A stretch of 64,000 nucleotides of DNA from Thermoproteota archaeon. GTDB taxonomy: Archaea > Asgardarchaeota > Njordarchaeia > Njordarchaeales > Panguiarchaeaceae. Below, one piece after another: positions 14,407-20,486 of this stretch (within the stretch, counting starts at the first letter, position 1; each line of letters opens with the position of its first letter). The translations under genes and the position numbers were made by a program. Where the stretch lies: positions 128,001 to 192,000 of the forward strand of contig JANJXX010000002.1 of assembly GCA_024720975.1 (NCBI GenBank), in the 5' to 3' direction. Below the pieces are notes generated by a model. That model worked only from the letters and a program-made list of their open reading frames with translations. It was not told the DNA's origin and did no database searches.

Positions 14407-16911
14407 GTGCACTTTCATGCATGTTGCTTCGCCTTTATCGAACTTCCCTCATACCACTCTAAGGGGTCCTGCTTGGTTTCTAAAAGTTTTGAGCTCATTA
14501 AATACCTGTTAGGGGACGACATTATAACTGAAATCGAACACGGCACACACAGGAAAAAAATAGCTATGAAGCTCTTAGATAATTTACACCTTCTAAGGCT
14601 ATTTCCACCTCTTAGGGATCTTCTTCCTGCTCTTGCAGCATCTCTCTTCGAGCCCCCTACTCATAGATTAACCCTCATAGAAAAATTTATAATAGAAAGA
14701 GGGCTACTCTCACGAGTATGGATTAAGGATACAGCCACCGAAGAACTCCTTGGAAAGACCATTAAATTAATACAAGATCTTAGTCATGATACCCTGCTGA
14801 AGATATTGGCTGTGATCATGAAGAACTACGCTACAACAAGCGAACTAGAATCGCGACTCGATCATCTTATTGATATGACTTTTACTCTGTATGCTCGCGC
14901 AGGGAAGTTCGATCTAACCGCACCCAAACTTTTTCCATCACCAAAATTTTTATCAGAAATTACAAAGTGCAAAGAACTTGAGGCAAATCCTGATGAAATT
15001 ATTAACGAGGCTATAAGGACTACATGCAGAATCCTGCCCAAGCGTCTGCTTAGTTATTTGGACTTTGCACTCAGAATCTTAACTGGTATAAGCTTGAGGG
15101 AGCTATCTTCAAATACTATATCTAAGTTACTCTTTAGTGAACGATTGGAAGCCATAAAGATTGTATGCATCATCGCGATGCTATACGCCGGATCTTTTTC
15201 TCCTGATAGATTAAGAGAACAAATCAGGCTAAGCCTGTTAGAGTTTCTCATTCGGGAATACATTACATCCAACGACAACATGGTTCATGGCTGGCTAATC
15301 TCGTTACTGTTAACGGTGAGCGCATCTAGAGAAGAGCTACTTAACCTTCTAACAATATATAAGCTCGCTTCAGTCCATGGAGGAAAAGTAATGCTAAGGC
15401 TTCTCGAAACATTATTCGAAAACTCTAATGCCTACCTAATTGCTTGCATGCTAATGCTCTTAACTGCACATCACAACGATGAACTAGAGGCCATAAGCTC
15501 ACTTGCAATTTCAAGAAACAGTACTAGACTTAGGCTTATTAACAGCATACTCATTAAATCCGATCTTAAACCTCACGGATTGACTGCACCTATCCCCTGG
15601 GAGCTATATGGTTCCATCGATAAACTCCTTAGAAGTTGTAAATCAGCGATTACATATTACAAAAATTTATACATCCAGCCACCAAGAAACTTATTAAGAC
15701 TTGACAAATTTCTAGAAAGTGCGAATAACATGATAAACCTCGAGCTTGAGGAGACAACCAACATAGAGGAACTCAAGCAGAAACTTGAACTTACGCTAGA
15801 AACTCTAAGTAGAGGTTATGCTTTCACTAGTGAAATGATAAGAACCTTTGGAATGCTGCCAGGATTCTTCCAAACAATTAATGCTGTAAGGAACACCTGT
15901 AAAAAGCTTAGCGATAGGTGGGAATACACACTTACAAAGGACTATCTAAATTTAGTCACCAAGCATCGAGATTTGTTCACGATATCATCTCTTGATGCTG
16001 TTCAAAGGGAACAGGAACCTATAATCTCCTTAATTATTGATGGCCTCCGCTTCGATGATCTAATTTTGCGGTTACTACCTAAGCTTAAAAAGCGCGGCTT
16101 TAGACTCATACAGGGGGGAGCGAAAATCTCTTTGCTACCATCAATAACGACGGTATCAAGACGAGCTATAATATCTGGAGAACTTCCCCAGCTGCTAGCC
16201 TTCTCTAAAACATCCCTAAAGAGAGAAGACGAAATCCTACTGGGTAGATTCGGACAAAATATCGAGTCTTACTACGGACCAGTGGCAACTGTTTATAGCA
16301 AATTCTCAGAAAGAGAGTATCACTCAAACAAAGTGTTCATAGTACTCAGTGAGCTCGAAAAATCTATGCACGGATCATCAGAAAAAATCCTAGCACATTT
16401 CGTGGATGAATATCTACATAGTATCGTTGAACTGATAATGTATCTAGTAACATCGATTACAAGAAAGCATAAAAAGATACGGATTCTTATATGTTCAGAT
16501 CATGGTCTAAGCGCATTTGTGAAGTTTTATGACTTATCAATTTTCCTAGAAAAGCTAACAAACAAAAAACTCACTGATCCTTCATTGGAGCCGCTAATCA
16601 AGGAACGATTTGCCCTCATTCCATTAAGAAACCCGCAACAGATATTAGAAGCCCAGCAAATTTACAGTTCCGAGGAAGAGTTTCGATACTCGTTTTGGTT
16701 ATTACCTGCAGATAGTCTTGGCTTCAAGGAAATAGAGTTTTATCTGAAAGGAACGAAGACTCTAGCGAAAACTTGTCCCTCATCAAGAGTTGTAATAATA
16801 TTTCCGAAGGGCGACAGGAAACTTATAAGTGGTAAGGGCGCCATATATCACGGAGGTTTATCACCGGATGAAACATTTAGCGCCTATGCCTTACTCTCTT
16901 ATGATGCTTAA
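14407..16911 (+). CDS. Large protein with Leu-rich helical N-terminus and C-terminal PglZ (alkaline-phosphatase superfamily) domain; start may be TTG 14473
   Basis: IIDGLRFDD, SLLPSITTVSRRAIISG, ICSDHG, YHGGLSPDE match PglZ/PorX motifs. Confidence 0.8.
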   Translation: MHFHACCFAFIELPSYHSKGSCLVSKSFELIKYLLGDDIITEIEHGTHRKKIAMKLLDNLHLLRLFPPLRDLLPALAASLFEPPTHRLTLIEKFIIERGLLSRVWIKDTATEELLGKTIKLIQDLSHDTLLKILAVIMKNYATTSELESRLDHLIDMTFTLYARAGKFDLTAPKLFPSPKFLSEITKCKELEANPDEIINEAIRTTCRILPKRLLSYLDFALRILTGISLRELSSNTISKLLFSERLEAIKIVCIIAMLYAGSFSPDRLREQIRLSLLEFLIREYITSNDNMVHGWLISLLLTVSASREELLNLLTIYKLASVHGGKVMLRLLETLFENSNAYLIACMLMLLTAHHNDELEAISSLAISRNSTRLRLINSILIKSDLKPHGLTAPIPWELYGSIDKLLRSCKSAITYYKNLYIQPPRNLLRLDKFLESANNMINLELEETTNIEELKQKLELTLETLSRGYAFTSEMIRTFGMLPGFFQTINAVRNTCKKLSDRWEYTLTKDYLNLVTKHRDLFTISSLDAVQREQEPIISLIIDGLRFDDLILRLLPKLKKRGFRLIQGGAKISLLPSITTVSRRAIISGELPQLLAFSKTSLKREDEILLGRFGQNIESYYGPVATVYSKFSEREYHSNKVFIVLSELEKSMHGSSEKILAHFVDEYLHSIVELIMYLVTSITRKHKKIRILICSDHGLSAFVKFYDLSIFLEKLTNKKLTDPSLEPLIKERFALIPLRNPQQILEAQQIYSSEEEFRYSFWLLPADSLGFKEIEFYLKGTKTLAKTCPSSRVVIIFPKGDRKLISGKGAIYHGGLSPDETFSAYALLSYDA

Positions 16912-18671: not shown

Positions 18672-18953
18672 CTATACAATACTTTTTATAGCCTCTACGA
18701 TTCGCTTTCCCCTGTCTGTTATCCTTATTGTCCATGCATTAACTCTTGGAGTTATCTTCTTTACAGCAATTCTAACAAGACCAACTTCAGCCAGGAGTAA
18801 AACTGCCTTTCTCACTGCTTTATACTTTGAAAAGCCCAAGTGAATCAATATGTCAGTGAGCTTCATTTCCCCGTATTTGTCTAGGAGGTATAGCACTAAT
18901 ACTGAAAATGGCGAAGAGAGTGCTTGTAGTATAAGCTCTAGACTCAAATACAA
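18672..18953 (-). CDS. Winged helix-turn-helix DNA-binding protein (ArsR/MarR-like)
   Basis: VLYLLDKYGEMKLTDI...LAEVGLV...ITDRGK wHTH pattern. Confidence 0.8.
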   Translation of the reverse strand: MYLSLELILQALSSPFSVLVLYLLDKYGEMKLTDILIHLGFSKYKAVRKAVLLLAEVGLVRIAVKKITPRVNAWTIRITDRGKRIVEAIKSIV

Positions 18954-19265
18954 CCCCCAATAATCATAGAGTAAAAATAGTTAGAAAGACTTAAAAACGT
19001 AGAATACGAAACATGAGGCACTGCATTGACTCTAATAGATCCCAGAAAAACACAGAACTAAAGTCTCTTAATGTATACAATAAGACGATTTAATAATAGT
19101 CTGATACTGTGAATTTCACAAAAGGGTGTTTCAACCTATTACATTTAGCCAACAAAAATCATCAGTAAGCACCCTGTATAACAGACATCAACTTCACAAG
19201 TGCCACTTCCTGTGAACAAAACTTGTTAACTTTGCGAATCTATTGAACCTAGCTAGCATCGTTTC

Positions 19266-19285
19266 TCCAGTGGAAATGGGGGGTC
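19266..19285 (+). promoter_or_regulatory. Origin recognition box (ORB)
   Basis: TCCAGTGGAAATGGGGGGTC matches the archaeal ORB consensus TCCA-n3-GAAA plus G-string. Confidence 0.8.
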
Positions 19286-19396
19286 TTGAAAAAACAGACT
19301 AGAATCAGACTTTCAGAGACAATATAATTGCTAGAGGCATATCTGAAAGGCTCAACAGTTTCTACAAGAACTCAGTGACCCAAGTGAATCCCTGTA

Positions 19397-19418
19397 GACC
19401 CCTGGTCTTCCTATATAG
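19397..19418 (-). promoter_or_regulatory. Degenerate ORB, inverted relative to the 19266 box
   Basis: Reverse complement CTATATAGGAAGACCAGGGGTC (GGAA-n5-GGGGTC). Confidence 0.45.
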
Positions 19419-19625
19419 TTAATATCAACATATTTGTGAATCGTGCTGTTATACGTGAACTATACGCGAAGCATATCCTAGTTTCACATTCTCTAACTTC
19501 CAATAGTGAAGTTAACTATCCACCTAACAGCTTAGATTTTAGTTCCATGATTGAATGCTTCTTCTCTGTAGAAAGTCGTCTTTGGCGGGGCTTTTTGTTA
19601 TTGGTGTTCGGATGTTATTGGGTGC

Positions 19626-19646
19626 TTCAATGGAATTTAAGGGGTC
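19626..19646 (+). promoter_or_regulatory. Degenerate ORB
   Basis: TTCAATGGAATTTAAGGGGTC aligns with TCCAGTGGAAATGGGGGGTC. Confidence 0.55.
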
Positions 19647-19973
19647 ATCACATTCACTTGCGAAGATAGTTAGGTAAATAAGGATTCCTGTAAATTGCCC
19701 ATGGTGGGAGAATGTCGTTGTATTTGTCCTCAGCTGGTGCCATATGTAAGTCAAGTAGCAAAATTGTCTGATTAACTGCCGAAGTATGGCATTAATTGAT
19801 TTAGGAGACTTTCACTCGAGGATAAATTACTGACTCCTATTTCCCTAAAGTATTATCTACACTGCTTGCTCATGGTTTTGATTCTGTGAAAGTTAGATAG
19901 CTTAGCATATCTATTCGTGTATTCGTTGCGTATAACGTTCGATATACACTTCACTTTAATTTCACTGCATGAT

Positions 19974-19990
19974 GATTACCATTGGTAATC
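19974..19990. promoter_or_regulatory. Perfect 8-1-8 palindrome, candidate operator
   Basis: GATTACCA-T-TGGTAATC ending 13 bp upstream of the ATG at 20004. Confidence 0.5.
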
Positions 19991-20003
19991 TTGGTAGGAC
20001 TAG

Positions 20004-20486
20004 ATGCCGACATTGAATATTAAAGTGAAAGTAGGAGATACTGAGGTAGAAGTTAAAGCAGATGGTACTTTGGATAAGGAAACTATTCATGCTATTAGGA
20101 GCATCTTAGCCCCTCTCGCGTCTAGAATTCCGTCTGCCGCTGCTGTTAGGGACAATGCTAGTCTGAATAATAACACTGATGACATTGCTGTAAATAGTCA
20201 GGATGCATTTGTGAGGAATGTTAACTTGTATGCCAAATTTAAGGAACTAATGCTTAACGTGTTCAAGCTTGGACAGTGGTTTACGTCTATTGATGCTAAA
20301 GAAGTGTTCCATGATACTTATGGGATCCTTCTGAAGTCGTCAACTGTGACGACATATCTCCGTCGTATGGAGGATGAAGGGCTACTGACGTCTAAGAGAC
20401 AAGGACGCCTATTGCAGTTTAGGATTTCAGCAGTTCCTCTCTATGCAACTCTTGCAGAATCGGAATTTAATGAACTTAAAGCTTAG
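20004..20486 (+). CDS. DNA-binding protein with N-terminal beta-hairpin/helix module and C-terminal winged helix
   Basis: WFTSIDAKEVF...LKSSTVTTYLRRMEDEGLLTSKRQGR wHTH; low-complexity linker. Confidence 0.8.
   Translation: MPTLNIKVKVGDTEVEVKADGTLDKETIHAIRSILAPLASRIPSAAAVRDNASLNNNTDDIAVNSQDAFVRNVNLYAKFKELMLNVFKLGQWFTSIDAKEVFHDTYGILLKSSTVTTYLRRMEDEGLLTSKRQGRLLQFRISAVPLYATLAESEFNELKA

Follow-up and report, generated by a model that had tools for sequence, protein, structure and literature searches.

The window analysed here is a 64,000-nucleotide stretch (C19:128001-192000) of the 200-kb contig C19 in an Asgard archaeal assembly, G000, which comprises 1.36 Mb in 29 contigs and is 81% complete. 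Between a gene for a 93-aa winged helix-turn-helix (wHTH)-like protein and one for a 160-aa protein with a predicted winged helix, it contains a 1050-bp gap without a conserved open reading frame (ORF), in which two origin recognition boxes (ORBs) lie within a dense array of the pentamer GTGAA and its complement TTCAC. Below, "the wHTH gene" is always that of the 160-aa protein; the record titles on the loci retrieved with this protein read Candidatus Njordarchaeota/Njordarchaeum. The locus was compared with those of Asgard archaea of the same phylum, among which G001, G003 and G004 belong to the same genus as G000, G003 being a fully syntenic sister whose homologue of the 160-aa protein is 66% identical. 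A total of 90 loci with the wHTH gene were examined, 30 from a first search and 60 further ones.

The original prediction for this DNA had described 14 exact GTGAA/TTCAC copies in 857 bp, all of which are recovered by a direct count (19109, 19115, 19193, 19212, 19384, 19436, 19455, 19483, 19506, 19653, 19811, 19886, 19950 and 19961). The three additional GCGAA copies that it listed (19234, 19466, 19660), the inverted pair TGTGAATTTCACA (19108-19120), the arrangement TTCACTTGCGAA (19653) and the direct pairs separated by 11 bp are likewise present. With a background of 1.82 GTGAA per kb on both strands of G000, only 1.56 copies are expected in this interval, and the observed number has a Poisson probability of 1.3e-9. 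When 857-bp intervals were counted along all contigs (1.36 Mb), 19109-19965 emerged as the sole maximum with 14 copies, the runner-up having 8. The possibility that other intergenic DNA might be similarly dense was not borne out, as 2.0 copies per kb are found in the other stretches of the window that lack long ORFs.

The choice of this word after inspection of the sequence was accounted for by ranking all 512 pentamer classes on their most extreme 857-bp cluster. GTGAA ranks 28th, and 25 of the 27 classes above it owe their position to the GC-rich rRNA operon (C11) or to an array of clustered regularly interspaced short palindromic repeats (CRISPR) on C3. Longer repeats were considered as the cause of the enrichment and rejected, the longest repeat family that shares the box being 14 nt long with three copies. 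Elsewhere in G000 the box occurs at chance frequency, with 92 pentamer pairs against 110 expected and no second array. The sole same-strand TGTGAA triplet of the assembly (C25:74671-74700) falls inside a 587-aa ORF and is probably a chance occurrence. The CRISPR array in question (C3:16770-17890) has a 24-nt repeat, CTTTCAATTCTCTTTGTGAGATTC, in at least 15 copies and reaches the contig end.

The base preceding the pentamer is T in seven of the 14 copies, A in six and C in one; therefore, the unit of the array is the hexamer (T/A)GTGAA. The suggestion that the GCGAA copies are variant boxes holds in part: in G003 the counterparts of those at 19234 and 19660 read TGTGAA, but GCGAA itself is not enriched in the stretch (3 observed versus 1.26 expected). 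Similarly, the proposed pairing at one helical turn, to which the CGCGAA (19465) situated 11 bp beyond CGTGAA (19454) would conform, survives as a tendency; across the 30 loci of the first search, however, close pairs fall into two spacing classes, 7-11 and 16-20 bp, in direct and divergent orientation alike.

Table 1. Features of the gap and its flanking genes, in window coordinates (PWM, score with the ORB position weight matrix)
Feature	Position	Strand	Remarks
Gene-free gap, 1050 bp, candidate chromosomal replication origin	18954..20003	.	without conserved ORF
ORB1, canonical with G-string, TTCTCCAGTGGAAATGGGGGG	19263..19283	+	PWM 29.9; kept in G003
ORB2, degenerate, TTCAATGGAATTTAAGGGGTCA, oriented as ORB1	19620..19647	+	PWM 13.0; G003 version TTCACTGGAAGGTATGGGGTC
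Head-to-head pair TGTGAA-T-TTCACA	19108..19120	.	position not kept in G003
Box cluster TTCACA 19193, TGTGAA 19211, TGTTAA 19224, TGCGAA 19233	19193..19238	.	four kept in G003, spacers differ
Central boxes AGTGAA 19383, TGTGAA 19435, CGTGAA 19454, TTCACA 19483, AGTGAA 19505	19383..19510	.	only 19505 nearly kept in G003
Divergent pair TTCAC-T-TGCGAA, directly 3' of ORB2	19653..19664	.	aligns with TTCACA-TGTGAA in G003
TTCACT 19811 and TGTGAA 19885	19811..19890	.	region not alignable to G003
Promoter-proximal direct pair TTCAC-TTTAAT-TTCAC	19941..19966	-	54 and 43 bp before ATG; around TATA-like TTTAAT
160-aa protein gene, candidate box binder	20004..20486	+	linked to ORB/box locus
93-aa wHTH-like protein gene	18672..18953	-	genus-restricted

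A scan of 17-22 kb of the window against Rfam returned no RNA family. The gap also contains three copies of the heptamer GTATAAC/GTTATAC (19176, 19448, 19932) where 0.11 are expected, two of them inside a 23-nt, 74% complementary inverted repeat (19448-19470 and 19914-19936) with arms 443 nt apart. In the four same-genus genomes, TATACA ranks first among the hexamers upstream of the wHTH gene (7 observed, 0.2 expected), and GTATAAC/TATACA may be a second, genus-level motif. Further upstream in the window, an 834-aa PglZ-domain protein is encoded at 14407-16911, with no partner genes of the bacteriophage exclusion (BREX) system nearby.

Origin status of the gap

ORB1 has the TCCAGTGGAAA core together with the G-string at 19263-19283 and is the sole exact ORB match in the assembly. 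With a position weight matrix derived from the ORBs of related genomes, its score compares with 15 for the next best match genome-wide, and matches of the grade of ORB2 are expected by chance only 0.05 times in the stretch. The cumulative GC skew of contig C19 declines over the first 145 kb and climbs again between 150 and 200 kb, its V-shaped minimum lying in the 145-150 kb bin, which corresponds to 17-22 kb of the window. The same switch is visible inside the 64-kb window itself, and two other large contigs are monotonic. Because the only strong ORB and the GC-skew minimum fall together here, the gap is the best origin candidate of the G000 genome, in agreement with the earlier claim that the array overlies a putative origin.

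Conservation of the array across Asgard archaea

An alignment of the gaps of G000 and G003 revealed that they have mostly diverged, with ORB1, ORB2 and the boxes at 19193, 19211, 19224, 19233, 19653/19659 and 19950/19961 standing out as conserved islands. Box columns are 68% identical as against 50% elsewhere (permutation p = 0.02), and a 27-nt promoter-proximal block with two TTCAC boxes is nearly identical in both genomes. The remaining boxes have turned over in position with their density kept, there being 10 GTGAA sites upstream of the gene in G003. These islands within a diverged spacer support the proposal that the copies are short protein-binding boxes distinct from the ORB. The three boxes best kept in G003 (19184-19197, 19644-19657, 19941-19954) have a common 14-nt context, GAYATMAMMTTCAC, with 79% identity; hence, some boxes may be part of a longer, higher-affinity site.

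Conservation at orthologous loci, which the original prediction had put forward as a check, is evident beyond the genus. In the 30 loci of the first search, GTGAA has a density of 6.9 per kb upstream of the wHTH gene, whereas the gene and the sequence that follows it have 2.2 per kb, and a T precedes the pentamer in 65% of the upstream sites versus 25% of the control sites. The ~1 kb upstream of the gene usually has one to five ORBs in addition to the GTGAA cluster. An unbiased hexamer enrichment over 900 bp upstream, with the G000 locus excluded, placed TGTGAA first (120 observed, 16 expected), ahead of the words derived from the ORB. The exact form of the box depends on the lineage: TGTGAAT prevails in family f9 (Thorarchaeota; 184 observed, 11 expected), TGTTAAC in f10 and TGTGAAA in f22, while mixtures are seen in f14 and f18. 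Across the lineages in which the box varies in this manner, the ORB core is constant.

In most of the 90 loci, the wHTH gene has an ORB set in a TGT[G/T]AA array no more than a few kb away. As judged from sequence, a conserved Asgard module is apparent, consisting of one or more ORBs with 6-14 TGT[G/T]AA boxes over ~0.5-1 kb on both sides and, usually, a wHTH gene directly downstream; in G000 the start of this gene follows the last box by 38 bp. The array is real, non-random and conserved, and we are highly confident in regarding it as an origin-associated, protein-binding array.

The proximity of the array to the wHTH gene raises the question of whether it is only the operator of that gene, in which an Orc1 site is incidentally present, with the true core of the origin at another place. 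Such an operator might look like the pair of boxes on either side of the TATA-like element, which are situated 43-54 bp before the ATG and kept in G003, and the stretch has no inverted core of two ORBs around a DNA unwinding element (ORB-DUE-ORB). However, rearranged relatives separate the gene from the array. In G001 the wHTH gene is 4.3 kb from an inverted ORB pair, and six TGTGAA surround the ORBs, while the kilobase that precedes the gene has none. The complete genomes G037 and G079 (family f7) each have a single match to the strict ORB pattern (TCCASTGGAAA-N3-4-GGGG), 5.3 kb from the gene; in G037, the sequence examined for the boxes, 9 GTGAA sites occur within 1.1 kb of this ORB and 2 in the upstream region of the gene. 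Since in two lineages the boxes are kept at the ORB with the gene 4-5 kb distant, the array is a component of the origin and more than an operator of the gene. These rearrangements, the lack of any other ORB above a score of 15 in the G000 assembly and the turn of the GC skew exactly at the gap contradict the operator-only explanation in this lineage, and we consider it very unlikely overall.

G034, G037 and G079 each have a single same-strand TGTGAA triplet genome-wide, situated no more than 110 bp from the ORB near the gene, and a strict ORB is present within 5.5 kb of the gene in all five complete genomes that carry it. Conversely, in five nearly complete Asgard genomes that yielded no wHTH gene (G041, G050, G031, G092 and G062), no strict ORB was found either, suggesting that the canonical ORB and the wHTH gene may have been lost together; the triplet search detected isolated three-box clusters without an ORB in two of these five. 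The complete Asgard genome G048 has a second strict ORB (C1:284000-291000) between 2-hydroxyacid and 3-hydroxyacyl-CoA dehydrogenase genes, with no TGTGAA boxes and no wHTH gene nearby; thus, an ORB does not automatically come with boxes.

Rearrangements within the genus have affected the neighbourhood of the origin. In G001 (C3:15000-31000) and G004 (C10:5000-19000), the wHTH gene is codirectional with the tRNA-splicing endonuclease and ATCase genes, to which it is convergent in the window. The ORB pair of G001 is lodged between MiaB-like radical-SAM and PIN-domain genes and is separated from the wHTH gene by SHMT and ThyX genes.

A candidate reader of the boxes

The original prediction had named both flanking wHTH proteins as candidate binders, and the two fare differently. 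The 93-aa protein (18672-18953) is a poor candidate: tblastn matches to it come only from five genomes of the genus, and in G001 and G004 its gene is beside the ATCase gene and not beside the ORB. It is probably outside the system. The 160-aa protein (20004-20486), on the other hand, is linked to the ORB/box locus across the phylum. Its family profile matches 158 of the 201 Asgard genomes sampled, and the 343 protein clusters of the family, with annotations from Thorarchaeota, Lokiarchaeota, Sifarchaeia and Promethearchaeota, are all labelled hypothetical or generic wHTH. Members are 20-30% identical, and the 160-aa protein shows the family pattern GWFTS.D..E.Y ... ST.STYL.R ... G.L.R...YR, in which the winged helix follows a small N-terminal domain.

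An AlphaFold2 model of the 160-aa protein (mean predicted local distance difference test score 75; 94-98 in the winged helix) has an N-terminal β-hairpin and helix (residues 1-40), a disordered linker and a C-terminal winged helix (68-141). The latter resembles ArsR/PadR-like winged helices only in a generic way. A Foldseek search of the model against PDB gave only generic winged-helix matches at E-values of 0.0035 or weaker, with the yeast Cdt1 C-terminal domain at rank 12 (E = 0.013), and searches with Pfam and NCBIfam yielded no family above the cut-off for either the 160-aa or the 93-aa protein. A two-copy complex prediction scored 0.02, which is uninformative either way on dimerisation. 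The combination of a small N-terminal domain, a disordered linker and a winged helix would, if the model is right, accommodate boxes of irregular spacing and orientation.

We marginally favour the linked 160-aa wHTH protein as the reader of the boxes, since no gene other than its own is kept at or close to the array all the way from Njordarchaeales to Thorarchaeota. A box that varies between lineages next to a constant ORB also fits a fast-evolving wHTH reader, and fits a conserved Orc1 less well. This observation bears directly on the alternative that the boxes are secondary Orc1/Cdc6 sites, that is, weak half-ORBs for the main initiator or sites for a second paralogue, as in Sulfolobus, where different Orc1 paralogues have distinct sites at the origins. 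The boxes always accompany an ORB, G000 codes for two Orc1/Cdc6 paralogues, and (A/T)GTGAAA bears a loose resemblance to the GTGGAAA half of the ORB. Nevertheless, we consider this alternative unlikely: the ORB core is almost invariant while the box switches between TGTGAA and TGTTAA and in its flanking base, the solitary strict ORB of G048 has no boxes around it, and there are none near either orc1 gene of G000.

Alternatively, the boxes might be read by an unlinked, abundant, sequence-specific chromatin protein, the wHTH gene being a bystander that has another role, related to the origin or to regulation. There is a precedent in the ucm motif of Sulfolobus, a non-Orc1 origin motif read by a protein, UBP, whose gene is not at the origin (PMC12141716), and the boxes are still at the ORB where 4-5 kb separate it from the wHTH gene. 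Yet the boxes of G000 are at chance frequency outside the origin, unlike the 300 or more genomic sites of UBP, and this explanation leaves the wHTH gene as the sole gene kept near the array over such a phylogenetic range; hence, we regard it as improbable.

A third alternative takes the array for a centromere-like site on whose boxes the wHTH protein is loaded to segregate new origins. Segregation proteins with comparable arrangements include ParB on parS near bacterial origins and AspA and TubR on plasmids. Multi-copy sites beside an origin with a small wHTH gene alongside would suit such a role, and AspA and TubR are among the weak sequence and fold matches of the 160-aa protein. However, this likeness is that of a generic winged helix (E-values 0.016-0.3), and no gene for a ParA/SegA-type or TubZ-type NTPase is found beside the wHTH gene, whose neighbours code for the tRNA-splicing endonuclease and ATCase. 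We therefore hold a centromere-like function to be highly improbable.

The mechanism that we propose builds on the wHTH protein as reader. The (T/A)GTGAA boxes would be short protein-recognition sites that, together with one strong and one degenerate ORB, form the replication-origin region of the Njordarchaeales chromosome. The 160-aa protein would bind them through its winged helix: at the two boxes flanking the TATA-like element of its own promoter this might result in autoregulation, whereas around the ORBs it might build a nucleoprotein platform that modulates the action of Orc1/MCM, either activating or restraining it. The effect on initiation is what we infer from this arrangement. A more far-reaching version, which we consider possible though doubtful, would see here a second, lineage-wide origin-recognition layer of Asgard archaea. 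In it the wHTH protein would read the TGT[G/T]AA boxes and be needed along with Orc1 to license or fire the origin, as a co-initiator or gatekeeper without a described counterpart in other archaea that is co-inherited and lost with the canonical ORB.

Several observations weigh against the proposed mechanism. With respect to the origin, ORB1 and ORB2 have the same orientation and are 360 bp apart, so that no inverted ORB-DUE-ORB core is formed. Except for the palindromic overlap of ORB1 itself, no inverted partner above a matrix score of 8 occurs in the stretch, nor is there a marked AT-rich element, the top AT content in 50 bp being 74%. The gap is not a canonical ORB-DUE-ORB core; in the relative G001, the inverted ORB pair is arranged around an AT-rich spacer. 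Both orc1/cdc6 genes of G000, recognised by their Cdc6_C matches, are distant, one at 92 kb on C19 (55 kb off) and the other on contig C11, and the gap does not have the adjacent orc1/cdc6 gene of an ORB-type origin. Moreover, with the assembly being 81% complete, a further origin could be absent from it. With respect to the protein, its binding of the boxes is itself deduced and not observed. The genes of G001 and G037/G079 have no box array in their own upstream regions (0-2 boxes); therefore, autoregulation is not general and the linkage is not absolute. Finally, residues 113-114 of the recognition helix are concordant with the G/T variant of the box in 57 of 68 loci, but these reduce to three phylogenetically independent contrasts and the relationship is not significant. 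In raw counts only, Ser-Thr at these positions goes with TGTGAA and other residues with TGTTAA-rich arrays, and the covariation of protein and box is suggestive. Separately from these points, a degenerate inverted ORB at ~19396, within a conserved GACCCC...TTCC island, was considered and rejected on its matrix score of -4.3.

Comparison with known systems

Full-text literature searches on Asgard origin architecture or on TGTGAA at archaeal origins returned nothing relevant, and the reviews and replisome surveys searched cover the proteins but not the architecture of the origins. The locus is an instance of the known idea of accessory origin-binding factors, with an array that is without description in the literature searched. 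The architecture that it provides is concrete and testable: a single ORB, a second motif in a dense array and an uncharacterised protein family that is linked to it in most Asgard lineages. The present genome is informative in that the array coincides with its only ORB and with the skew minimum, while sister genomes separate the gene from the array. In practical terms, where an Asgard metagenome assembly is fragmented and no orc1 gene is adjacent, a probable origin can be recognised from an ORB, a box array and a wHTH gene occurring together.

Among bacterial origins, oriC is subject to second regulators that tune or block initiation, such as CtrA at its sites in the Caulobacter Cori, Spo0A at its boxes and SeqA at GATC clusters, and the genes of these regulators are usually not linked to the origin. 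The gap shares with them the interspersion of several short candidate non-initiator sites with initiator boxes; it differs in that the proteins and motifs are unrelated, and those systems are bacterial and based on DnaA. The self-regulating systems of repeated sites provide another point of reference. The iterons of plasmids are regularly spaced repeats of 17-22 bp and parS is a 16-bp palindrome, with the Rep, ParB or TubR gene located beside the repeats. Like iteron/Rep, ParB-parS and TubR-tubC, the locus combines repeated sites with a neighbouring winged-helix gene, here that of the candidate binder. Unlike iterons and parS, its repeats are hexamers in mixed orientation that are chromosomal and occur with ORBs. 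As for an iteron/Rep system, there is no box-sharing repeat family longer than 14 nt, the spacing is irregular, and the protein has no match to a Rep family; as for ParB-parS, the box is non-palindromic, the protein is an ArsR/PadR-like winged helix, and there is no NTPase gene nearby.

Closer parallels come from the archaea. With the classical ORB-type oriC1 of Sulfolobus, Pyrococcus and haloarchaea (PMC4010727), the gap has in common a canonical ORB with its G-string and a GC-skew switch. It departs from this type in the absence of an adjacent orc1/cdc6 gene, in having one strong and one degenerate ORB in direct orientation, and in the dense second motif class of G000. In Sulfolobus, oriC3 is adjoined by the gene for WhiP, a winged-helix protein related to Cdt1, and is without ORB or mini-ORB (Robinson & Bell, 2007; Samson et al., 2013, PMC3607249; PMC4010727). 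Our locus likewise has a candidate origin without a neighbouring orc1 and with a winged-helix gene next to it; however, an ORB is central to it, and the 160-aa protein consists of one generic ArsR/PadR-like winged helix with a small N-terminal domain.

The nearest precedent for a dedicated reader is again found in Sulfolobus, whose oriC1-3 contain the short non-ORB motif ucm, which is essential at the origin and read by the small, specific protein UBP (Dhanaraju et al., 2025, PMC12141716). The motif is a single copy of ~11 bp in the DNA unwinding element, ATTATACAAAAG (given as a 12-mer in the supplement), while UBP is a β-hairpin saddle protein with more than 300 genomic sites that is limited to Sulfolobales and Desulfurococcales, and its gene was not reported as linked to the origin (PMC12141716). 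An identity of the box with ucm was rejected on comparing motif with motif, ATTATACAAAAG against (T/A)GTGAA, with no pattern search of the stretch being made. The GTATAAC motif of the gap has TTATAC in common with ucm, possibly by chance. The authors of the UBP study explicitly raised the question of whether analogous proteins exist in other archaeal lineages (PMC12141716), and the present locus bears on this question of whether such lineages have accessory origin proteins of their own. In both cases a short non-ORB motif is situated within an archaeal origin, and UBP is a small, specific reader other than Orc1; where Sulfolobus has one ~11-bp ucm in the unwinding element and a saddle fold, the Asgard module has 6-14 hexamers flanking the ORBs and a winged helix.

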